A program made the translations under genes and the position numbers. Below the pieces are notes generated by a model. That model was given only the letters and a program-made list of their open reading frames with translations, did no database searches and was not told the origin of the DNA. Shown in pieces: positions 2,802 through 59,490 of a DNA stretch of 64,000 nucleotides. Source of the stretch: a virus; the IMG/VR virus record IMGVR_UViG_3300034198_015569, positions 1-64,000 of that record. One strand, 5' to 3'. The number at the start of each line of letters is the position of its first letter. The first letter of the stretch is position 1.

Positions 2802-3899
2802 ATGATCATCAATAATCACGCACAGCATATTATGAAAGTTATTGAAGACGCTGGCTATCAGGCTCGTGTCTGCGGTGGCGCTGTGCGTGATTATGTCATG
2901 GGAAATGAGCCTAAAGATTGGGACATTGCAACTACCGCTCTCCCTGAAAAGGTGATGAAGCTTTTTCCGCATACAATTCCAACTGGCCTTCAGCACGGTA
3001 CGGTTTCCGTGGTCATTGAAAATGAAGTATTTGAAGTGACCACGCTTCGAAAGGACGTGGAAACGGACGGGCGCCATGCTGTTGTGGAATTCACGGACAA
3101 TTGGAGGACCGATGCCCTTCGCCGGGATTTTACCATGAATGCCATGTACATGGATATTAATCGTAATCTTTATGATTACTTCGGCGGCGTGAATGACATT
3201 ACCAATGGAGTTATTCGCTTCGTTGGAAACGCTGCTGATCGAATCAAGGAAGACTATTTGCGCATCCTGCGGTACTTCCGTTTTATGTCTCGATATGACA
3301 TGGATAATGCAGATATCGAAACCCTAGTTGCCATCAGAGAAAATGTGATGGGATTGGAAAAGATTTCTGTTGAACGTATTTGGAGTGAGATTAAGAAGAT
3401 TTATTCTTATCATCAAAATATCCATAATATTACTCAACTAATGAACATGTGTGAAGTGTGGAAGGGTGTGGGTATGAAAAACCGCATGTTTTCTGCCGCA
3501 TCTTCTTCAAATGATTACAAGTATAATAGTCCTCTAATGAATGCCTTTTTGCCGATTATTTTTGAGCTTGATACGCTCAAGGAACAGTGGAAGCTTTCAA
3601 TTGATGAAAAGAATAAATATGAAATCATCATAGAGATTGCCAAGCAAAAGAGTGTTGAAGATATTATCTATCTTGCCTATCAGAAGGAAGAAAACGTCCG
3701 CTGGTATCTTGGGCATGATTCTGTCTTTGATCCTGGCAAGGTTGGTGAGGCTGCTAGGTGGCTTCGCAATAATCCTGTGCTGCCGTCTTTCCCCTTCAAT
3801 GGTGATACACTGAAGACCGAAGGATTTGCCGGGAAGAAGCTGGGCGATGAACTGAAGCGCCGCAAGCTGGAATATATAAAGACGATGGTTAATGGGTAA
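2802..3899 (+). CDS. cca: CCA tRNA nucleotidyltransferase (class II)
   Basis: GGAVRD, DWDIAT, EVTTLRKD..TDGRHA, DALRRDFTMNA, RIKEDYLRILRYFRF and ERIWSE motifs. Confidence 0.93.
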   Translation: MIINNHAQHIMKVIEDAGYQARVCGGAVRDYVMGNEPKDWDIATTALPEKVMKLFPHTIPTGLQHGTVSVVIENEVFEVTTLRKDVETDGRHAVVEFTDNWRTDALRRDFTMNAMYMDINRNLYDYFGGVNDITNGVIRFVGNAADRIKEDYLRILRYFRFMSRYDMDNADIETLVAIRENVMGLEKISVERIWSEIKKIYSYHQNIHNITQLMNMCEVWKGVGMKNRMFSAASSSNDYKYNSPLMNAFLPIIFELDTLKEQWKLSIDEKNKYEIIIEIAKQKSVEDIIYLAYQKEENVRWYLGHDSVFDPGKVGEAARWLRNNPVLPSFPFNGDTLKTEGFAGKKLGDELKRRKLEYIKTMVNG

Positions 3900-24155: not shown

Positions 24156-25440
24156 GGAGAATAAAATATGTCAAATTATTGGGTCTATAATCAATATAAA
24201 GGAATTTTTGATTCTGAAAGACTTGGTTGGATTGATGGAATTCGTTTTGTAATAAACGATATCGATGCATCTCATGATCGGGGATACAATGACGATTCTC
24301 CTTACGCTCATGGCTTTGATAGAGCTATTGAAGCATTCGACGGAAAGATTAATTCTTTGTGGTTGTTCGGTCATTATCACAAATCTTTTAAGATGAACAT
24401 TTATGGTACTGAATTCATCTGTCTCGCCGAATTGGAGTATCTAGATATTGAATTGTGAGGAATAATGAAGGTTTATCGAGTTGAATTGCCATGTGGAGGC
24501 GGGCCTTTTCGATCCGCCACCTGCGCATTTGTTGGTGTTGGAAAAAATAATCATCCATATCCTGATGATGAAGGAATAGATTTTGAATATAAACATGTTT
24601 TTGGATGCCAGTCATTAAGGGATATTTATGGATGGTTCGGTCATCGAATACCACACCTTATGGATAATGGATTTGCTATTTCTGTTTATGATGTAAAGAA
24701 AGCACGAGTGGGAGGAACACAAGTTGCTTTTGATCGTAAACATGCCAAATTGAAGAAAAGAATTTCTCTCTCTAAAATGGCTAAAGTAAAATATATTAGA
24801 GAATATCTAGATAGAGGAATTGTGAAAAATGTCGCCTGATGAAAAATATAAAAAAGAATATGCAAAGGATGACTACAAACGTCTAGTTGAATTGTTTAGA
24901 AGAATTCATTCCGAAACGATGGTTTGGGAACTTTCAAATCAAAAGCAAGTGGATTCTTTTAAGGCTATTCAGAAGTGGTCAACAGAAGCCATTTCTCTTC
25001 TTCGCCCGCATGACAATCCTTCAGATGAAGAAAAGAAGATTGCATACGATCTTCTTAAGATTGCTTTGTTAGATATTGAAGAAACAAAACATAACGGTTT
25101 TAGAACTGAATATTGGACCTCTGAAGCAAAGAGATTGTATAATGTCAAAGAAAAATAAACACCATAAGTTGGAAATATGCAATTATAATGGAGAAATTAG
25201 TTCATTATATTTGAATGATTATAGAATTTCTGGCCCGAAGCCTTACGGTGGTGGAATTATTGTTAAGAATTTCAAAGTTACAAATAAAGATTTACTTAGT
25301 TCAATTCCTGAATACCAAAAAGTTTTAGATGTTTTAAAAATGGCCTTGAAGGAACACGATTATAAGTGTACAATGCAAGTCACTTTTACAGAACCTCAAT
25401 GGGTTCATGAAGCACGGGCCATTATTAAAGAAATCGAGGA

Positions 25441-26541
25441 TTGAATATGGGCAAAGAAAAGATTAAGTCCTACGAAGATGCAGTAATGGCTTATGTGATC
25501 AAGAATCATGGTGAAGCTCTGGCTAGCTGCATCCAAGACCCTGTGTATCATGCTGAAGGTAGCGTGTGGACGCATACGGTTCGTGTTTTGGAAGAAGTAA
25601 AGAAAATCTCTTCTCCTTCTGAAATGGAAACAATGGCTGTTGCTGCAATTCTTCATGATATTGCTAAGCCCGGCACTCGTGAAGAATACTTTGACGAATC
25701 TATGGGTAGGGTTCGTGTGAGCCACAAGCATCATGCCAAGCTTGGTGCCATCGATGCATGGAACATCATGTGGAAGCTCGGCCTGCCTCTCCAGATGCGT
25801 CTTGACGTGTACGCAATTATCCTCTGGCATCAAAAGGTTTTCCATACTTTCTATAAGAAGAAAGAAAAGATGGAAGAGGAGTTTGTTCGCTTCTCCATCA
25901 TTGGTAATTGGGATCAACTGATTCGCTTTGCGCTGGCTGACACTCGTGGTCGAGACAATGTGAATAATGATGATACTGAAGATACCCTTGCGGCTTTGAC
26001 TGAAGCTGTGAAGGAATTTGGTGTGTTTGATTATTCATATCCTTTCGAAACGCCAAATCATCGAATCACGGCTCTTGAAAGCAAGAATCGCTTTTATGTG
26101 CCCATCGATCCTCCTGGCGGTGTGATGCATATCATGAGCGGTCCTCCCGGTTCTGGTAAGGATACTTTTATCGAAAAGAATCTTCCTTATCCTGTTGTGT
26201 CTTTGGATTCTGTTCGTGGCGAGCTTGGTATTAAGCCTGATGGAAATCAGGGAAGGGTTATTCAGGAAGCACAAAAGCGTGTGAAGGAATATCTCGCCGC
26301 AAAGGAAACCTTTGTTCTTAATATCACTGGCCTGCGTAAGGAGACCCGTGACAAGTGGACAACCCTTGCTCGTGATTATCATGCGTTCATTTCTTTTCAT
26401 TGTATGAATACACCTTATGACAAGGCTGTAATTCAGAATACAAATCGAAAAGATTCTGTACCGCAGAATGCATGGGATAAGATGGTTTCTAAGTGGGAGC
26501 CTGTCACTCTGGAGGAAGGACATTTTGTTGAGTGGGTGTAA
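25441..26541 (+). CDS. HD-domain phosphohydrolase fused to a P-loop polynucleotide-kinase-like domain
   Basis: YHAEGSVWTHT, LHDIAK, ADTRGR, then GPPGSGKDT Walker A and SLDSVR. Confidence 0.85.
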   Translation: MNMGKEKIKSYEDAVMAYVIKNHGEALASCIQDPVYHAEGSVWTHTVRVLEEVKKISSPSEMETMAVAAILHDIAKPGTREEYFDESMGRVRVSHKHHAKLGAIDAWNIMWKLGLPLQMRLDVYAIILWHQKVFHTFYKKKEKMEEEFVRFSIIGNWDQLIRFALADTRGRDNVNNDDTEDTLAALTEAVKEFGVFDYSYPFETPNHRITALESKNRFYVPIDPPGGVMHIMSGPPGSGKDTFIEKNLPYPVVSLDSVRGELGIKPDGNQGRVIQEAQKRVKEYLAAKETFVLNITGLRKETRDKWTTLARDYHAFISFHCMNTPYDKAVIQNTNRKDSVPQNAWDKMVSKWEPVTLEEGHFVEWV

Positions 26542-28177: not shown

Positions 28178-28347
28178 AAAAGCTATTGACGGCATGTAGG
28201 GAATATCATAGTCTGTATGTGTTGAAGATGCTTAGAGAAAAGAGAAATGAGACATAGGAGGCACCAATGCTCTGATAATTAAAAAAATATCTTGATTATA
28301 GATTTGTGATTTGATATAGATTGGATAGAAACCTTAAGGAGATTAAA

Positions 28348-28377
28348 ATGAATAGCTCCCGAGATTCCCCGATTTAA
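28348..28377 (+). CDS. 9-aa minigene MNSSRDSPI
   Basis: AAGGAG SD 7 nt upstream; part of a tandem unit with the next minigene. Confidence 0.5.
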   Translation: MNSSRDSPI

Positions 28378-28436
28378 TACAAAATTGATAGTTAGATATA
28401 GATTGTGATTATTAGAGAAACTTTAGGAGATTAACT

Positions 28437-28466
28437 ATGGTAAGCAGCACTGGTCCCCCGAGGTAA
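28437..28466 (+). CDS. 9-aa minigene MVSSTGPPR (GPP arrest-like motif)
   Basis: AGGAG SD 7 nt upstream; same length and unit architecture as 28348-28377. Confidence 0.5.
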   Translation: MVSSTGPPR

Positions 28467-28539
28467 AACTTAAAATGCGCCCCAAAACGGCGCTTATTAG
28501 ATTGATAGATATAGATAAATTGTAGGTTGTAAGTGGTGT

Positions 28540-28572: not shown

Positions 28573-29090
28573 TTAGTTTTGTTGGGAGGTTGAATGATTT
28601 TTGTATATACATTACAAAACATTATAGGATTATTGATTTTTACAATTTTCTTTATTGGTATAATATTTTATGGTATTGTAAAGGGAGTCAAATCTCTTAA
28701 TCGATGGCGCAAATCTGGATTTTGCCGACACGATTGGAAATTTAATAAATCAAATTCTTTTAGTCAAAAGCACTGGTATAAGTGTAATAAATGCAATGAA
28801 GAAAGGCTCATGTAATGCCTTTTGTATATTCTGTTTCCGACGATAACCCAAATAGCAGTTATGGAAAAACTTACTTTTCTTCATTAAAATCTGCTAAGAT
28901 ACATGCACAAGAATGTGCAGATTTTGACGGATTGACAAAAGAAGTCATAAAGAATAAACTTAATAAAATTAAAGCAAGTGAGCTTTATGTATCACTTCTT
29001 AATGGACATACATGGTGTTCCGAAACAGAAATTGTCTTTGTAGCCAAGCCTTCGCCTGATACGTCTCCCGAATGGAAGGAATAATATAAA

Positions 29091-37243: not shown

Positions 37244-37318
37244 GCGGTTGTAGCTCAATGGTAGAGCAGGGCCTTCTAAACGCCATGGTAGTGGGTTCGA
37301 ATCCCACCTACCGCACCA
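37244..37318 (+). tRNA. tRNA with CTA anticodon (putative amber suppressor)
   Basis: Canonical D and T arms; best register GGGCC-TTCTAAA-CGCCA (3 central pairs); an Arg(TCT) register pairs worse. Confidence 0.6.
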
Positions 37319-41467: not shown

Positions 41468-42346
41468 ATGAAAAAAACTATAAATTACGAATATTTGGAA
41501 GAAAAAGTTCATTATAATATTCCCGCACTTGATACCAAATTGTATAAAGGAATAATTATTGATACTGAAACCGTCGATAAAAACGAAGATTCTGATATAA
41601 TTGAATTGGCAGCACTTTTATTTACATTTGATCTTAATGGTACGGTATATGAAGTAATCGACCAATATCATTCATACAACGATACAGATCAGGAAATATC
41701 TTCTGGTGCGTTTGCTAAACATGGTCTTACAAAAGACGATATTAAGGGACATTCTATAGATATAGAATTACTAAAAGATTGGCGAAAGCAATCTGTAATA
41801 GTAATTGCCCATAATGCTGTATTTGATCGCGGAAAGCTTTTGAGAAAAATACCAGAATTTAGAAAAAGTTATTGGGCATGCACATGTTATGACATTGATT
41901 GGGAAGCGCAAGGCTATACCCATAAAACCTTAGAATATCTTACTCTCAAAAATAGAATTCATTATGAAAATGGACACAGAGCCACAACGGATTGTCATTA
42001 TCTTTTAGAGTTAGTTTCAAGAGAACTTCCTTCGACCGGAATTCCCATACTTCGTCATCTCATGGATGCCGCAAGTAAAGAGGTTTATATTATTGGGATT
42101 AAACTCGATCCATATTCAGAAGACTTAAAGAATTATCTTAAAGATTGGCGATATGATTATCATAAAGAAAATAAAGCTTGGACGAATAGTAAATTGAGCC
42201 AAAAAGAATTTATCGATCAATGTAAAATTATTTCTGAATATGGAAATAAAGATAATATTAGATGGAGTAAAATTTCTAGACGTGATCCCGAATATTTTGA
42301 CTTGACAAAGGAATATACATACAATATGTTGTTCTCTCCAAAATAG
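41468..42346 (+). CDS. DEDDh 3'-5' exonuclease (DnaQ/epsilon-like)
   Basis: IIDTET, IAHNAVFDR, HRATTD. Confidence 0.85.
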   Translation: MKKTINYEYLEEKVHYNIPALDTKLYKGIIIDTETVDKNEDSDIIELAALLFTFDLNGTVYEVIDQYHSYNDTDQEISSGAFAKHGLTKDDIKGHSIDIELLKDWRKQSVIVIAHNAVFDRGKLLRKIPEFRKSYWACTCYDIDWEAQGYTHKTLEYLTLKNRIHYENGHRATTDCHYLLELVSRELPSTGIPILRHLMDAASKEVYIIGIKLDPYSEDLKNYLKDWRYDYHKENKAWTNSKLSQKEFIDQCKIISEYGNKDNIRWSKISRRDPEYFDLTKEYTYNMLFSPK

Positions 42347-42355
42347 GAGGAAACT

Positions 42356-42748
42356 GTGTTTCTTTTAGATTATATTATGTACATTTATATAGGTAATGAA
42401 TTTCATTTTGTTGAATATGATTCCGATATTGAAAAAGAATATGACCAGAAGACACTACGTTTTCTTGGTTGTATGGAAGACCTATTCTCAGAATTAACTC
42501 TTCTAGATGCTTATGGCGCAGCAAATGAAGAAAACATTAAGTGGCTCATTTATGATGTTGGAAAGCGTCACATGGGCTCTAATAAGAAGCAACTATTAAA
42601 TGATTACTTTCGAGTAATGTATATGATTTGGGGCGGACGAGAAGAAGGTCCGCGTTGGGATACTTTCATCTGTATGTTTGGTGTTCAGAGATTTATTGAT
42701 GTTATGAAAGCCAGAATCGATGATCCATGGAGAATTGGATATGAGTGA
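42356..42748 (+). CDS. protein resembling the class I LysRS C-terminal anticodon-binding domain
   Basis: YDVGK...LNDYFRVMY....GREEGPRW..FI..FG resembles the FKALY..L.G..QGPR.G.F pattern of LysRS-I; AGGAGG SD with GTG start. Confidence 0.55.
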   Translation: MFLLDYIMYIYIGNEFHFVEYDSDIEKEYDQKTLRFLGCMEDLFSELTLLDAYGAANEENIKWLIYDVGKRHMGSNKKQLLNDYFRVMYMIWGGREEGPRWDTFICMFGVQRFIDVMKARIDDPWRIGYE

Positions 42749-46928: not shown

Positions 46929-47006
46929 GCTCCTGGCGAATGGCTGGTGCCTGTTCGCTAGACTGAAAATCTAGAGGTAGTAGTTCGATTCTACTCGGGA
47001 GCACCA
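46929..47006 (+). tRNA. tRNA-Phe(GAA)
   Basis: CTAGA-CTGAAAA-TCTAG; T-arm; CCA. Confidence 0.85.
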
Positions 47007-53275: not shown

Positions 53276-55423
53276 ATGAAATATATGACAACTGGAACAG
53301 AATATCTTGCCGAAAAGCCAGATTTTAAATTGGTTGGTCGTGATGCGGAGCTTCAAGAACTTGCTTCAATTCTCATGCGAAATCGTGCTAATTCTGTTCT
53401 ATTGGTTGGTGCCGGTGGAGTTGGTTGCACGGCTCTTTGCCTTGGTCTCCAGGCTCTTAAGAATCAGCCAAATGTACCGTTCGATATCGTGTCTAAGCGT
53501 TTGTTTTGGCTGAACGTGGATGATCTTTTCTCTTCTGAAAATGCTGCGGCGGAATTCCAGAAGGTTTTGAACACACTTCGCAAGACTCCTGATTCTGTTC
53601 TTATTATCGAGGATACGAAGGATTTCATTGAAGCCGCTCGTAACAATGGTTCAACCAACTTTATCAACCCGCTTAATGCAGCGGTAAAGGATGGTTATAT
53701 ACAGGTTATCCTTGAAACCCGAGATGAGGATTTGGACCTGATTCTTAAATCACATTCCGATATGCGAGAATGCTACACGATGATGGACCTTGGGGAACCT
53801 ACTGGTGCTGCCCTTGAGGAAATCGTAAAGGTTTCTGCCGAATCGCTTTCTCGTTTCCATGGTATTAAGCTTGATCCGGCTGTTATTAAGGCTTCAATTG
53901 ATTTAACAAATAAGTATCGTACACAGGATTTGGGCCTTAATCGTGCTCAACCTGAACGCACTGTTACTTTGATTGATCGTGCTTTTGCTACTTATCGTTT
54001 GAATGCGCACAAGGCACCTCCTGGATTTAAGGAGCTTGAAGCAAAGTATAATGCAACAAATGATTCTTCCATTTATGAAGAATTGAGGTCTCGGTTTATG
54101 GTTTGGGAAGCGTCTCAGACAAAACTAAAGAATCTATTCCGTCTTCAGAGGCAGGCTGAAACTGCTATTGTGGAATTCGAAGAACAGATTGAAACTATTA
54201 AGAAGGAAGAGGAAGATCGCCGAAAGCGTGGTGATAATGTCACTGAAGGAAAGTTTAATGCGCTGAACCAACTTTCTTCAAATAATGGATTTGAAAGTGC
54301 TGCGGTAACAGAAATTCGCCAAAAGATTGAAGAATTGAATAAGGCTGCGGCTGCAAACAAGGCTGAATTTGAATCTGAAACGGCGAAGATCAATGAGCAT
54401 TTGATTTTGACGAATGATTTGATTGTTGCTGAATTTAGCAGCATTTCTGGAATTGATGTTTCCAAGCTGAACGAAGATGATCGTATTAAGCTGAAGAATT
54501 TGGCCGAAACTCTTAATCAAAGAATCTTTGGTCAACATGAAGCTGTGCGTCGTCTGTCTGACGCTGTGAAGGTGGCCCGCACGGGTAAGAAGATGAACAA
54601 TCGCCCGCAAGCTTCATTCATGTTCCTTGGCCCGTCTGGTGTGGGTAAGACTGAAATCGCCAAGGCTCTTGCTGTATCCTTGTTCGGAGATGAAGGCGCA
54701 TTGATGCGTTTTGATATGTCTGAATATATGGAAAAGCATGCTGTTGCTAAGATGATTGGTGCACCTCCTGGCTATGAAGGCTTTGAAGCTGGAGGTATTC
54801 TTACCAATGCAGCACGTAAGTTTCCTAATCGAATTTATCTATTTGATGAAATCGAGAAGGCACACCCTGACGTGTTCAATATCTTTCTTCAAATCCTTTC
54901 GGATGGTCGTTTGACTGATAACGTTGGCCGTACCGTGTCTTTTGCAGATGCGATTATTATTATGACTACCAATATTGGACAGCCGATTGCACTTGATCCC
55001 GATTTGACTTGGGAAGAGATTGAAGCGGGAATGAAGGAAGAACTTGATAAAACCTATCGTTCTGAATTCTTGAATCGTTTTGCTGGGCGACAGAATATTG
55101 TTTGTTTCAAGAAATTGGAACTTGAACATATTGAAAATATCGTTCGTAGGGAAATTAAGAATCTTAATATTACCTATGGTGAAATGGGTGTAGAGATTGA
55201 GATTTCTGATAAGAGCCTTAAAGCTTTTTGTCGTGATCATTATGACCCAAAAATTGGTGCCCGTGGTCTACCCGGTTACATCCAAGCTAATTTGGAGCCA
55301 ACCATTGTAAATACAATCCTTGACACGCCTGATGCTTCAGGTACAATGATTGTTGAATATAATGAAGCGACAAAAGCTTTTGATATTTCAATGAATATAA
55401 AAGAAAGTTTGGCTGCGGCCTGA
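53276..55423 (+). CDS. clpB: ClpB/Hsp100-like AAA+ protein lacking the N-domain, with degenerate NBD1
   Basis: LVGRD.EL; NBD1 GAGGVGCT; coiled-coil M-domain; NBD2 GPSGVGKT, RFDMSEYMEKH, FDEIEKAHPDVFN, GARGL. Confidence 0.85.
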   Translation: MKYMTTGTEYLAEKPDFKLVGRDAELQELASILMRNRANSVLLVGAGGVGCTALCLGLQALKNQPNVPFDIVSKRLFWLNVDDLFSSENAAAEFQKVLNTLRKTPDSVLIIEDTKDFIEAARNNGSTNFINPLNAAVKDGYIQVILETRDEDLDLILKSHSDMRECYTMMDLGEPTGAALEEIVKVSAESLSRFHGIKLDPAVIKASIDLTNKYRTQDLGLNRAQPERTVTLIDRAFATYRLNAHKAPPGFKELEAKYNATNDSSIYEELRSRFMVWEASQTKLKNLFRLQRQAETAIVEFEEQIETIKKEEEDRRKRGDNVTEGKFNALNQLSSNNGFESAAVTEIRQKIEELNKAAAANKAEFESETAKINEHLILTNDLIVAEFSSISGIDVSKLNEDDRIKLKNLAETLNQRIFGQHEAVRRLSDAVKVARTGKKMNNRPQASFMFLGPSGVGKTEIAKALAVSLFGDEGALMRFDMSEYMEKHAVAKMIGAPPGYEGFEAGGILTNAARKFPNRIYLFDEIEKAHPDVFNIFLQILSDGRLTDNVGRTVSFADAIIIMTTNIGQPIALDPDLTWEEIEAGMKEELDKTYRSEFLNRFAGRQNIVCFKKLELEHIENIVRREIKNLNITYGEMGVEIEISDKSLKAFCRDHYDPKIGARGLPGYIQANLEPTIVNTILDTPDASGTMIVEYNEATKAFDISMNIKESLAAA

Positions 55424-55433
55424 AAGGCAATGA

Positions 55434-56171
55434 ATGTCTGATTCTTTACTTGATAAGATGAAGCGATTGAATGATTCGGTTAATTCCAATTCATTCAATC
55501 GCCAGAAAACACACGATCAATCACGTATTGGTCGAATGCAAGATGATGTAACCAAGCTTCATCGCTTTTGGCTACAATTTACTTTTGCATGTTGGTGGGT
55601 TTGGACACGAATTCTTTTTCCTATTTTCAGATTTATGTCTAAACCAATGAGATGGGCATTTTATGCCTATCGTCATCTCTGGAGTATTGTAGTTTATACA
55701 CAGGATAAATATGGAGCACTTGTTTTTTCGAAGATGCGTGCTGGTATGTTTCTGACAGCAACTGTCATTATTCTTTATATGATGCCAGTTATTGCAAACC
55801 TGACATATGACACTACAATGTTTGCAGCCACGGTTGATTATGACGAAGAGGTTTATCTAACCAATTCTCAGGAAATCATTCCAGAATCAGACATTCATTC
55901 TGTCCAAGGTTGTAATAAACTTCCTTGCACTGATGATAATAGTATTTACTATCGTGTGAACCCGTCTTTGTTCAATCATATCTGGAGTTTTATTACCAAT
56001 AAGAATTGGTTTTTTCCAGATTATGTTGCGGCGGCTGTTCCTCCTGGCGTGAGTAAGTGTAAGATCACGTCATATGGAATTCGTATTAAGCTTCTGATTC
56101 GAAATGCGGATATATATCCCGACCTTCTGCAAGCGAGTTGTCAACCTATAAATACTGAAATTGGAAAATGA
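55434..56171 (+). CDS. membrane-anchored hypothetical protein
   Basis: Hydrophobic segments and a Cys-containing C-terminal domain. Confidence 0.65.
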   Translation: MSDSLLDKMKRLNDSVNSNSFNRQKTHDQSRIGRMQDDVTKLHRFWLQFTFACWWVWTRILFPIFRFMSKPMRWAFYAYRHLWSIVVYTQDKYGALVFSKMRAGMFLTATVIILYMMPVIANLTYDTTMFAATVDYDEEVYLTNSQEIIPESDIHSVQGCNKLPCTDDNSIYYRVNPSLFNHIWSFITNKNWFFPDYVAAAVPPGVSKCKITSYGIRIKLLIRNADIYPDLLQASCQPINTEIGK

Positions 56172-56550
56172 AATGAAATATGCTATAATTACAACGTTCT
56201 GTTTACTTTTTCTTGCTGCATGTGATTCGGATGCTAATGTTGCTTCCTATAATTTATCTAAAGCAGCGGACCAATTTGAAATCAATCGCAGAATTGTTTT
56301 CTATAATGGTATTACTGATAGTTATATGTTAACTATCGAGGGACTATGCTCATTGGGTAATGATGACAAGCCGGGACAACGCACAGTAACTTGTAAAGTT
56401 GGCCCCAATGCTTATAAAAAACATTATTTGGGTCTTTCCGATAATGTGACGTATTTTGCAGAACAACTTGAATCGGCACAGGTAAGTAAATACCATTATA
56501 AGGTTATTTTCAAACCTTCTGTCATTCTTCCCGATGTAGATTTAAAATGA
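56161..56550 (+). CDS. conserved phage lipoprotein
   Basis: LAAC lipobox; ASYNLSKAADQFEINRRIVFYNGITD...KHYLGLSDNVTYF; likely start 56173. Confidence 0.75.
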   Translation: MENEMKYAIITTFCLLFLAACDSDANVASYNLSKAADQFEINRRIVFYNGITDSYMLTIEGLCSLGNDDKPGQRTVTCKVGPNAYKKHYLGLSDNVTYFAEQLESAQVSKYHYKVIFKPSVILPDVDLK

Positions 56551-56615
56551 TCCTAGAAAATAATTTTCATTGACACCACAAAAAAGTTGATATAAAATTA
56601 TAAATCATTAAGTAT

Positions 56616-56691
56616 GATCCATTAGTTTAAGGGTAAAACACCGGGCTCTAATCCCGGAGATGACAGATACCAGCACTGTCATGGGTTGCCA
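56616..56691 (+). tRNA. amber-suppressor-type tRNA (CTA anticodon), atypical T-loop
   Basis: Perfect arm CCGGG-CTCTAAT-CCCGG; GATCCAT/ATGGGTT acceptor; GCCA end; TTGACA promoter at 56570. Confidence 0.75.
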
Positions 56692-56712
56692 ATGAAAATA
56701 AAAGGAAAGAAA

Positions 56713-56763
56713 ATGACCCTCTAGATTAAAAAGTATTAGATTCGTGGTCCCCCGTGTACCTAA
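56713..56763 (+). CDS. leader minigene with two in-frame TAG codons: MTL*IKKY*IRGPPCT
   Basis: ATG ACC CTC TAG ATT AAA AAG TAT TAG ATT CGT GGT CCC CCG TGT ACC TAA; AAAGGA SD. Confidence 0.55.
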
Positions 56764-56797
56764 TTGAACCAAATAAACAAAATTTAATTCAATTAGG
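56759..56797 (+). promoter_or_regulatory. SD-sequestering hairpin
   Basis: CCTAATTGAA (covers the leader stop) is the exact reverse complement of TTCAATTAGG (covers AGG of the AGGAGA SD of ORF 56809). Confidence 0.65.
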
Positions 56798-56808
56798 AGA
56801 ATACACAA

Positions 56809-57180
56809 ATGATTAACAACATCGAAAAGTACATTAATTCTAACCATCTTTACACTCAATATAACCTTGTGAGAAAGCAAGGCCAGCGTCTTATAGATGC
56901 AGCTACGGTAAATTCTAAAGAGGAATACCTAGCTTGGGTAAAGGATTGGAAAGAATCTATTAAGAACCTCGAATCTCATATTCGTTATTGTAAGTTTATG
57001 CGCAGTCCAGTACGTCAAGAAAATGATCCAAATAAGCCAGAAGGCTTCATAATTGATGCTGATCAATATTGTCGGTTTGCAAACGCATATGGACTTCTCG
57101 CTCATGAACTTTACAATAAGCGTGTTGAAATGAAAGAGGCTTCAATTGAAGCAAAGAAAAAGCTTCTAGAAGTAGCATAA
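56809..57180 (+). CDS. helical hypothetical protein (YL.WV..WK family), paralog A
   Basis: EEYLAWVKDWK...LYNKRVEMK. Confidence 0.75.
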   Translation: MINNIEKYINSNHLYTQYNLVRKQGQRLIDAATVNSKEEYLAWVKDWKESIKNLESHIRYCKFMRSPVRQENDPNKPEGFIIDADQYCRFANAYGLLAHELYNKRVEMKEASIEAKKKLLEVA

Positions 57181-57189
57181 GTAAAATTA

Positions 57190-57215
57190 GGAGGCTGGAA
57201 ATTAATCCAGCCTCC
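57190..57215 (+). terminator. hairpin / probable terminator
   Basis: GGAGGCTGGA/TCCAGCCTCC. Confidence 0.55.
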
Positions 57216-57261
57216 CTATTGAAATCTCATTTAGAATCATATATTGTGAAGGAGAAATTAA

Positions 57262-57609
57262 ATGCAGAAGTTTAATACGCAGCGTCAGCTTTCCAATTAT
57301 AAGAATAAGCATACTCATGAAGTAAATATCAATGAGTTGCGGAATAATATTCTTTATACAATTGCTCTAGCTGATGTTGATACTCGTGAGAAGTATCTAG
57401 AATGGGTTGAGGCATGGAAGAAGACGAACGTTGATCTTGTGAAGCTGATCAAGGCTTATAAGAAGAAGCGTCAGAATCTTTCGAATGATTCGGCTTCTAC
57501 CGAAGGAATTCTTGCTGAAGCTCGCTATCTCGCACAGTCTTTTTATGCGCAGCGTTATCGTATGAAGATTATGTCAATTCTTAATCAGGCTGATGATTTG
57601 GAAGTTTGA
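57262..57609 (+). CDS. helical hypothetical protein (YL.WV..WK family), paralog B
   Basis: EKYLEWVEAWK...FYAQRYRMK; AAGGAG SD. Confidence 0.75.
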   Translation: MQKFNTQRQLSNYKNKHTHEVNINELRNNILYTIALADVDTREKYLEWVEAWKKTNVDLVKLIKAYKKKRQNLSNDSASTEGILAEARYLAQSFYAQRYRMKIMSILNQADDLEV

Positions 57610-58016
57610 ATATAAATAAATTAGGATATTTGTTGAGTTTATTAAATTTATCGTCGGTTTCACAGGGAACAGTAGGTCTTGGATTTGCAATTGCTCATTA
57701 TGTAGCAGAAGGCAAAATAGTTTCCATTCCATTAAACGACAATCAAGATTATGATTTAGTTGTTGAAGAAAATGGGAAACTTAAAAAAGTTCAAGTCAAA
57801 ACATCTCGTGTGAAAGAGAACGGTAATTTTAGAGTCGAAATACGAAAAATTCGATCAAATAAAACAATAAATAAAGTAATAGAATTTAATAATACAACTT
57901 GTGATATTGTATTTGTATATTGTGATGATGGAACAAAATATTCAATACCATCTGATAAAATACATACAAAAACTACAATTGTATTAAATCAAAAGTTTAA
58001 TGAATTTAAACTTTAA
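57606..58016 (+). CDS. PD-(D/E)XK endonuclease (group I intron-associated-like family)
   Basis: VSIPLND.QDYDLVVE...KKVQVKT. Confidence 0.78.
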   Translation: MNINKLGYLLSLLNLSSVSQGTVGLGFAIAHYVAEGKIVSIPLNDNQDYDLVVEENGKLKKVQVKTSRVKENGNFRVEIRKIRSNKTINKVIEFNNTTCDIVFVYCDDGTKYSIPSDKIHTKTTIVLNQKFNEFKL

Positions 58017-58017
58017 T

Positions 58018-58110
58018 GGATACTGAACTTCACCAGCGTGGAGCCCGATCTTGAAAATCGGTGGAACCCCTAGTAAGGGTTTGGAGGGCAGCACTACCCG
58101 GTATCCGCCA
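58018..58110 (+). tRNA. tRNA-Ser(TGA), non-canonical D/T loops
   Basis: CCGAT-CTTGAAA-ATCGG; long variable arm; GCCA end. Confidence 0.72.
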
Positions 58111-58116
58111 ATTCTT

Positions 58117-58207
58117 GGAAAGTAAACCATACGGGGTATGGCACTGTTTGGAAAACAGTTGGAACCTTGAAAAAGTGTTTGCGGATCGAGACCGCTGCTT
58201 TCCTCCA
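58117..58207 (+). tRNA. tRNA-Ser(GGA)
   Basis: ACTGT-TTGGAAA-ACAGT; long variable arm; CCA. Confidence 0.75.
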
Positions 58208-58685
58208 TTTTTAAAATAATGAATAGGTGAAAATATGACTCTTACTGAACTTCACATTGAATGGGATAATCTATCTAAGTCTCGTCGTGAGACTGCTATT
58301 CGCTCATTGTTTGATGAGCTTCAGCGTGATCCAGAGCAATATGAAGATTTTATTTATGATATCCTGTCTCAAGCTGTTGATCTTGAGACCGATGATTATT
58401 TTGGAACTGAAGGCTTGAAAGTTTAATTTTTCTCTGTATAATTAACTCCTCATTAACTTAAAGGAGTTAAGAAAATGAATAATTTTTGGTTGGCATTTTT
58501 TCTCGCTGCGGGAATGACCTTTTGGTCAATCATCACATATATAGTTGTATATTTTCTAGTTGGATTGCTTGGAGTTGTACTCGCAATTATCATAATTTTT
58601 GGTATGTTTTTGCTGGTGTTGTGGCTATTGGCACATCTCATTATGGAGAGACCGATTCCCACTGAACCGTAAAAGTGGTCTAAAT

Positions 58686-59100: not shown

Positions 59101-59490
59101 ATGAACGTTAATCAAAAAGGAGTTAAGGGTTTAATCAAAATTATAGACCATTTAACAGATAAAAGCTGGTATTGTTTTCCAGCTTTTGATGATCATTCTC
59201 CAGTTGACTTGATAATTATGAATGAAGCTGGTAAGCTTATGAAACTCCAGATAAAATATAGGAGTCGCATACAAAGGTTCGTATCAGAAAGATATGAACT
59301 ACAAGCATCTTCCGTTGTCAACGGAAAACGAGTAGATATCAACAGGATTTTAATAGATGGTTGGGGTGTGTATCTTGAGGAAGCACAAAAAGTAGTTTTC
59401 ATCCATAAAAATTATTTAATTAATAAAAAAAGTTTTATTATTAATCCTAATATAAATTACTTATCTTTGGAAGAATGGCCGAGTGGTTGA
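59101..59490 (+). CDS. PD-(D/E)XK endonuclease-like protein
   Basis: KG..G...F...DDHSPVDLI.....KLQIKY; 3' end runs into tRNA-Ser. Confidence 0.65.
   Translation: MNVNQKGVKGLIKIIDHLTDKSWYCFPAFDDHSPVDLIIMNEAGKLMKLQIKYRSRIQRFVSERYELQASSVVNGKRVDINRILIDGWGVYLEEAQKVVFIHKNYLINKKSFIINPNINYLSLEEWPSG

Follow-up and report, generated by a model that had tools for sequence, protein, structure and literature searches.

We analyzed a 64-kb stretch of viral DNA (the window), which makes up positions 1 to 64,000 of a linear IMG/VR virus record of 88,427 bp (IMGVR_UViG_3300034198_015569); counts for the genome refer to the whole record. In this window, a short leader interrupted by two UAG codons lies upstream of ORF123, a gene of the phrog_22342 family, and a hairpin hides the Shine-Dalgarno (SD) sequence of this gene. 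The locus and its relatives suggest that the element is probably a translational switch gated by amber (UAG) readthrough. Related phages keep the same design, and the leader is probably a natural switch that reports whether the UAG-reading tRNA of the phage works. All parts of the proposed switch lie within 250 nt, and a direct string check found each of them where an earlier note, made from the sequence alone, had placed it:

56570..56598, plus strand: sigma-70-type promoter-like site (TTGACA at 56570-56575, 17-nt spacer, TAAAAT at 56593-56598)
56616..56691, plus strand: tRNA-like gene with anticodon CUA (Rfam RF00005, 35.8 bits against a gathering score of 29)
56703..56709, plus strand: SD-like sequence of the leader, AGGAAAG, ending 3 nt before the ATG at 56713, with its AGGA core 6 nt before the ATG
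56713..56763, plus strand: leader mini open reading frame (mini-ORF) MTL-UAG-IKKY-UAG-IRGPPCT-stop (UAGs at 56722-56724 and 56737-56739, RGPP codons at 56743-56754, TAA at 56761-56763)
56754..56807, plus strand: SD-hiding hairpin (outer 5-bp helix 56754-56758/56803-56807, 10-bp stem 56759-56768/56788-56797, inner 4-bp stem)
56809..57180, plus strand: ORF123, the putative regulated gene, phrog_22342 family (unknown function)

The leader and the hairpin upstream of ORF123

The leader starts 21 nt after the tRNA-like gene and is the sole SD-led mini-ORF between this gene and ORF123. Its frame is interrupted by both UAGs between the ATG at 56713 and RGPP, and no in-frame ATG, GTG, or TTG follows the second UAG. 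An arrest core of the form Arg-(Ala/Gly)-Pro-Pro is found a few residues from the stop (IRGPPCT-stop, 56740-56763). The SD-led leader with two TAGs that the earlier note described was confirmed at 56713-56763.

The main stem of the hairpin is formed by CCTAATTGAA (56759-56768), which is perfectly paired with TTCAATTAGG (56788-56797), and the claim that a perfect 10-bp hairpin covers the SD of the ORF at 56809 was borne out. The pairing extends to 16-nt arms at 88%, and the fold z-score is -2.47. The SD of ORF123 is AGGAG (56795-56799, start codon at 56809) and the hairpin covers its AGG, while the TAA of the leader is inside the 5' arm of the 10-bp stem. Judged by geometry only, ORF123 has a small co-oriented ORF directly upstream and a hairpin-sequestered SD that a stalled ribosome could open. 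Another hairpin, GC-rich and with 15-nt arms, is located directly after the ORF123 stop (window 57185-57220). Its 5' arm begins with AATTAGGAG, a word of the ORF123 SD region that is present at only these two places in the genome.

Short frames of a different kind are found at 28292-28516 of the window. They are two tandem units of ~90 nt, each combining a tract rich in TAGAT with a strong SD and a minigene of nine codons (MNSSRDSPI and MVSSTGPPR). MVSSTGPPR uses the same GGTCCCCCG as the leader at 56713 and ends 10 nt before a GC-rich hairpin with a T-rich tail, and it may thus act on the ORF at 28594 as an attenuator of the leader-peptide type.

UAG-interrupted leaders and genes in related phages

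The closest complete relative, G001 (247 kb, ClpB 61% identical), encodes one phrog_22342 homologue. The 93-nt region upstream of this homologue contains an SD-led mini-ORF, MS-UAG-LAQPP-stop (TAA). A 10-bp stem (TCTCTTTTGA/TCAAAGGAGA) follows 3 nt after its stop and sequesters the SD of the homologue; the sequence of this stem is unrelated to that of the window stem. A canonical CUA tRNA is encoded 2.4 kb upstream on the same strand. Conservation at this homologue was partial: the in-frame UAG, the Pro-Pro end, and an SD-hiding hairpin of different sequence were kept, but RGPP was not, QPP being found instead. The earlier note had reasoned that homologues keeping TAGATT out of frame would point to a nucleic-acid binding motif; G001 keeps UAG in frame, and TAGATT is absent. 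All three in-frame stops that interrupt the window and G001 leaders are UAG; of all stop trinucleotides in these genomes, 17% and 11% are UAG.

To place the two leaders among other hairpins, we counted hairpins with 10-bp stems in related phage DNA (1.05 Mb, both strands; L082 and L083, which duplicate or overlap other loci, left out). There were 1230, and 33 of them had an ATG..UAG..stop frame ending at the 5' arm. Pro-Pro followed the UAG in two of these 33 leaders, those of the window locus and the G001 homologue. A separate count of SD-hiding hairpins before ORFs in ~1 Mb of related DNA gave 39 (duplicate or overlapping loci L082, L083, L093-L095, L098, and L099 left out). A UAG-interrupted leader preceded two of them, again window and G001, and an uninterrupted leader preceded seven.

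Since a Pth2-like gene (PF01981, 31 bits) precedes the family gene in relatives, loci were fetched with a Pth2 alignment. The resulting set consisted of 35 IMG/VR loci (L130-L164) of large phages; counts of these loci overstate their independence, since L151/L152 and L154/L155 are identical pairs and L140-L146 and L161 form one clade. The first in-frame stop upstream of the Pth2 core was UAG in 29 of the 35 loci, compared with 53 of 284 other ORFs of the same loci (Fisher p 5e-14). A CUA tRNA was encoded on the same strand within 3.5 kb in 20 loci, in most of which it was the sole tRNA there. All 20 had the UAG before Pth2, as against 9 of the 15 loci without such a tRNA (p 0.003). In 25 of the 29 loci with the UAG, an ATG preceded it at a distance of one to seven codons, and some of these ATGs had a clear SD. 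By all appearances the UAG upstream of the Pth2 core must be translated, because the residues after it are conserved as protein, including the first strand of Pth2, and there is no start codon between. The phrog_22342 family was downstream of Pth2 in the same gene runs in 28 of the 35 loci; tRNA(CUA), Pth2, and phrog_22342 evidently are a conserved gene run in this set. PF01981 had no match in the 88-kb record, which is 36% complete, so that a copy elsewhere in the phage is possible.

Ten of the related loci have leaders of the form M-x(4-8)-UAG-x(2-8)-R[AGSD]PP, ~0.6-0.95 kb upstream of Pth2. Four forms were found: MKK[IV]LT[HQ]H-UAG-APR[AG]PP with the variant MKTNIHV-UAG-APRAPP, MNTNKHH-UAG-VQRGPP, MNKKLHHL-UAG-LHRSRSPP, and MNTHY-UAG-HHPSQARDPP. 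In single-sequence folds of eight of these ten leaders, a hairpin started in or just after the Pro codons and reached the start of the next gene in all eight. Peptides of the form M-x(1-12)-stop-x(0-10)-RxPP in 360 kb of related loci had UAG as the stop in 14 cases, TAA in two, and TGA in three, and 10 of the 14 were the leaders upstream of Pth2. This broader pattern was used for the counts since one demanding the stop within four codons of Pro-Pro misses the leaders of the relatives. Compared with these amber leaders, the window leader has two UAGs and an atypical CUA tRNA-like gene in cis, has no Pth2 nearby, and would gate the phrog_22342 gene directly. Between the amber leader, Pth2, and phrog_22342 genes of the relatives are two small protein families ending in ...MMFKLRWR (L140-L146 and L161, ~2930-3300) and ...LFKLTFGG (L088-L092, ~1190-1500). 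They look like distant paralogues, and their function is unknown.

The genome was also scanned for an SD-led ATG followed by one to eight codons, a stop, and then at least 50 open codons. One real case was found:

Genome 79479-79757, outside the window (L165:680-958): conserved 91-codon gene with UAG as codon 3 (MN-UAG-VQIHWIEGNCPVQAEG..., then 89 codons)

The 89 codons after the UAG have 23 homologues of ~90 aa (E down to 6e-22). All 11 aligned homologues have sense residues across the UAG position, and the three with a like N-terminal length have Leu, Ile, or Glu. The frame has no other start codon near its 5' end, and its next in-frame Met is ~60 codons on.

ORF123 itself has few relatives in the databases. 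Megablast of 55400-58400 against GenBank phages gave no match and blastn matched the lipoprotein gene only; tblastn of ORF123 against phages gave none. Pattern searches of IMG/VR for the locus gave nothing apart from one distant locus and G001 itself, and both metagenome scans for relatives of the locus were negative. A word-indexed protein search with ORF123 returned only the query. The full HMMER search identified family members P0002, P0005, and P0006 on contigs of 615-1320 bp (ENA or Logan), and 11 of 75 large phages, searched as the whole records behind ClpB-anchored loci, had family members. A family match in G008 was dropped because it was weak (E 0.007) and had three internal stops. 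Next to ClpB, synteny was kept for a 245-aa protein only. A second family member follows ORF123:

57262..57609, plus strand: ORF115, tandem paralogue of ORF123 with its own SD (33% identity, E 3e-9)

ORF115 may share the ORF123 transcript, and such tandem family pairs are also present in relatives.

CUA tRNAs and the genetic code of the record

The promoter-like site at 56570 matches the consensus at 11 of 12 positions and is in the gap after a lipoprotein gene ending at 56550. It is one of four sites of this quality in 5.5 kb, where promoter-like sites are not above shuffles (24 vs 19.7 +/- 4.9). In the tRNA-like gene downstream of it, the anticodon loop is CUCUAAU, two of the 7 bp in the acceptor stem are G-U pairs, the discriminator is G, and CCA is encoded. 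The gene has the same D-arm as the phage tRNA-Gln(CUG), as a supE-type derivative would. A search for its anticodon arm gave 0 matches. A further CUA tRNA is encoded in the window:

37244..37318, plus strand: canonical amber-suppressor-type tRNA(CUA) (Rfam 60.6 bits; ARAGORN anticodon cta)

This tRNA resembles the CUA tRNAs beside Pth2 in relatives. The phage thus encodes CUA tRNAs both 21 nt upstream of the leader (atypical) and 19 kb upstream (canonical). Of the two, the canonical tRNA would more likely be the decoder of the leader UAGs, and the atypical one at 56616 may not be the decoder.

The record has a GC content of 36% and ~20 tRNA genes (ARAGORN, Rfam). Its completeness is ~36% (CheckV), and therefore it is a fragment of a large phage. 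With code 11, a greedy set of 149 ORFs covers 89% (0.893) of the record. Nine of these ORFs end in UAG, and reading UAG through lifts coverage only to 0.917. The hallmark of a reassigned UAG, many UAG-interrupted genes with a coding density that is restored only when UAG is sense, was not seen in the record. Two ORFs that end in UAG share their frame with the following ORF and have no other stop between (24887/25076 at window 24887-25444 and 41468/42356 at window 41468-42748), and suppression would therefore fuse each pair. Such readthrough fusions were rejected, since the first pair has no relatives and the parts of the second, an exonuclease gene and the gene after it, are separate genes 94 kb apart in G001. 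Because of the high coverage with few UAG ends, the small gain from readthrough, and the separation of the in-frame pair in G001, the genome is a standard-code genome in which UAG is a rare stop. The impression of the earlier note that the genome otherwise looks standard-code holds by ORF coverage, yet it has the second gene, at 79479, with UAG as codon 3.

Contigs from two DNA runs of one study contain the stretch without any variant and may be the source sample; no RNA data set is listed as containing it. Among the tRNA genes there are PD-(D/E)XK (PDDEXK_5) nuclease genes at window 57606-58016 and 59101-59490, which may be of a mobile or homing type. Weak or truncated tRNA-like matches that ARAGORN did not call are located at window 46947-47003 (32.8 bits) and at genome 62962-63052 (25.2 bits) and 64249-64319 (42.1 bits).

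Proposed mechanism, alternatives, and known systems

From the observed parts, their geometry, their recurrence, and the standard code, we infer a series of events in which a phage tRNA would decode UAG, a ribosome would stall, and the hairpin would open. The transcript from the 56570 promoter would carry the CUA tRNA-like gene, the 16-codon leader, and ORF123, with the SD of ORF123 locked in the hairpin. Without suppression, translation would begin at the SD-led ATG (56713) and end at codon 4, the first UAG (56722-56724). Because this termination would occur 35 nt before the main stem, ORF123 is proposed to stay shut. With an active phage CUA tRNA, likely that at 37244 and possibly the atypical one beside the leader, some ribosomes would read both UAGs. 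On reaching Arg-Gly-Pro-Pro, they would stall while the second Pro codon (56752-56754) occupies the A site. Ribosome positions were computed from the usual bacterial ribosome footprint. A stalled ribosome would cover the next ~12-16 nt, its leading edge would be at ~56762-56765, and it would melt the outer helix and ~6 of the 10 main pairs. The freed SD would then allow other ribosomes to translate ORF123. A pause at Pro-Pro-stop in G001 would place nine of the 10 stem pairs under the ribosome. The central claim of the earlier note, that only a ribosome reading through both UAGs reaches RGPP and unmasks the next gene, is consistent with the comparative tests on G001, the ten RxPP loci, and Pth2. 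The likely purpose of such a switch would be to report that stop-codon suppression works, or to time expression by suppression.

Several observations weigh against this mechanism. Some concern the tRNA-like gene at 56616. The earlier note had called it a tRNA with a CTA anticodon, and the anticodon and the Rfam score above the cut-off agree with this, but ARAGORN made no call at 56616-56691 and the T-loop is odd, having 9 nt and lacking the usual TTC. Energy-only folding gave no cloverleaf, the sequence is unlike the CUA tRNAs of relatives, and a looser IMG/VR pattern for it gave 30 matches with 0 tRNAs among them. Others concern the leader. The existence of R[AG]PP is at chance level, because it occurs once in six frames of 88 kb, in the leader, and simulations average 0.7; its position 5 nt before the SD-hiding hairpin is not at chance level. 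Both TAGATT and GGTCCCCCG are found again at 28.3 kb, where no UAG-containing frame includes them. Reading two UAGs in succession would be inefficient, and since a 16-residue peptide has no room for a signal or membrane segment, the force-based release known for RAPP peptides cannot apply. The remaining points come from the relatives. The QPP-stop of the G001 leader is not an RxPP arrest core, and the 131-nt G001 stretch has an unremarkable fold (z -0.91). Among the 10 family homologues inspected, G001 has a leader, one start call is unclear, and the other eight are leaderless and abut or overlap the upstream ORF. RNAalifold found no consensus structure in the alignment of the leaders of eight relatives. 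Finally, the ten loci with RxPP leaders represent few independent events, because these relatives form one fairly tight clade.

The probability that does not go to a UAG-gated switch goes mainly to an ordinary SD-hiding hairpin, opened by temperature, by a protein, or by processing of the tRNA-mRNA transcript. The mini-ORF would then end as MTL-stop, and the RGPP frame would be untranslated. In favor of this, 37 of the 39 SD-hiding hairpins have no UAG leader, and perfect inverted repeats of 10 bp or more, to which the window hairpin belongs, are enriched in the genome (28, ~5 times commoner than the 5.1 +/- 2.0 of 30 simulations); one R[AG]PP per 88 kb is also expected by chance. We nevertheless consider a plain hairpin unlikely, since it leaves unexplained the SD-led, UAG-interrupted frame of G001 that ends in Pro-Pro at the foot of a hairpin, and the UAG specificity of stop-then-RxPP in relatives. 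It is improbable that TAGATT and GGTCCCCCG are instead nucleic-acid signals, such as a promoter or operator word or an RNA motif, and that the UAG and Gly-Pro-Pro readings are incidental. GGTCCCCCG does occur exactly twice in the window, in the leader and in the minigene at 28452, and TAGAT-rich tracts precede both 28.3-kb minigenes outside their frames. However, TAGATT is not enriched (35 on the plus strand vs 48.6 expected), and TAGAT clusters number 7 per strand vs 6.5 simulated. Moreover, the G001 leader has its in-frame UAG without TAGATT and uses different Pro codons, and in relatives R[AGSD]PP is conserved at the peptide level while its codons vary.

Two stops in a 16-codon frame and the degenerate look of the adjacent tRNA might also suggest decay, in which nonsense mutations have killed a once-uninterrupted RGPP arrest leader and ORF123 is constitutively repressed or otherwise expressed. 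This is quite improbable, because the interrupting stops at both homologous loci are UAG in three of three cases although no more than 11-17% of stop trinucleotides are UAG, a single UAG stands at a constant position before RxPP in ten other loci, and the contigs from the two runs of one study, which may be the source sample, have no variant. We give the least credence to the view that unrelated features have come together by chance. The promoter-like site, the single RGPP, the hairpin, and the short ORF are each common or at chance level, but their combination recurs at the homologous locus and nowhere else among the 1230 hairpins, and a class of UAG-specific RxPP leaders exists in relatives.

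Arrest peptides of the RAPP/RGPP type include ApdA, ApdP, and ApcA; SecM has RAGP, and RAPP/RGPP upstream ORFs are present in Streptomyces. In ErmCL, MifM, and SecM, pausing of a ribosome in the leader unfolds the hairpin in which the SD of the downstream gene is masked, and the trigger is an antibiotic or secretion or insertion activity. The leader-stalled ribosome proposed here would likewise open an SD hairpin; unlike in those systems, the stall site itself would be gated by UAG readthrough. Autoregulation of RF2 (prfB), which senses RF2, uses an in-frame UGA and a +1 frameshift within the gene. As in prfB, an early in-frame stop would tie expression to the efficiency of stop recognition, but tRNA readthrough in a separate leader would be sensed and the hairpin would transmit the signal. 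According to a study of RAPP/RGPP upstream ORFs, RGPP is the most robust and least context-dependent arrest core, is refractory to EF-P, and is found near the C-terminus of small upstream ORFs (PMC12992588). The phage leader resembles the ORFs of that study (PMC12992588) in being a small co-oriented upstream ORF with RGPP a few codons before the stop and a hairpin-locked downstream SD. It differs from RAPP/RGPP arrest peptides in that two UAGs break its frame between the sole SD-led ATG and RGPP, and in that it is phage-borne and its input would be stop-codon suppression, not protein localisation. Unlike the RAPP/RGPP 'monitoring substrates', its 16 residues include no signal or membrane segment for release by secretion force.

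In recoded phages that use code 15 (TAG to Gln), in-frame stops have been proposed to delay expression until the suppressor is made (Borges et al., bioRxiv 10.1101/2021.08.26.457843). The phage analyzed here is similar to code-15 phages in its phage-encoded CUA tRNA, low GC content, and few UAG stops. Unlike them, it has the standard code, and its UAGs occupy a regulatory leader and the opening codons of a few genes rather than being spread throughout the late genes. Synthetic suppressor-tRNA gates (PMC7969014, PMC6412442) likewise make a target conditional on amber suppression, but they are engineered; the phage leader would be their equivalent in nature, linked to both an arrest motif and an SD hairpin. 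No published description of a natural UAG-gated arrest leader was found in a search that did not cover the supplementary lists of RAPP/RGPP upstream ORFs and of code-change modules, which might contain such leaders.

A broader view can be put forward tentatively. Large standard-code phages might carry a dedicated checkpoint for their own stop-codon suppression. Its gates would be UAGs, placed both within arrest-peptide leaders and among the opening codons of a few genes (Pth2, the phrog_22342 family, and the 79479 gene). A small translation-related module would then be made only once the CUA tRNA is charged and out-competes release factor 1. With two UAGs in the gate, the response would be expected to follow approximately the square of the suppression efficiency. 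If such a checkpoint exists, the atypical CUA tRNA encoded in cis may serve regulation and not general decoding.

To our knowledge, many standard-code phages carry amber-suppressor tRNAs without known targets. A UAG-gated arrest leader would give these tRNAs a defined natural target, and stop-codon readthrough would be a new input for switches that combine an arrest peptide with an SD hairpin. It would also be a compact natural part for sensing suppression or release-factor activity. A checkpoint of the kind outlined above, if real, would be a natural readthrough sensor, would provide a purpose for 'orphan' suppressor tRNAs, and would be a plausible first step to full UAG reassignment. The leader would also show that in-frame stops can be put to regulatory use before a phage recodes its late genes.

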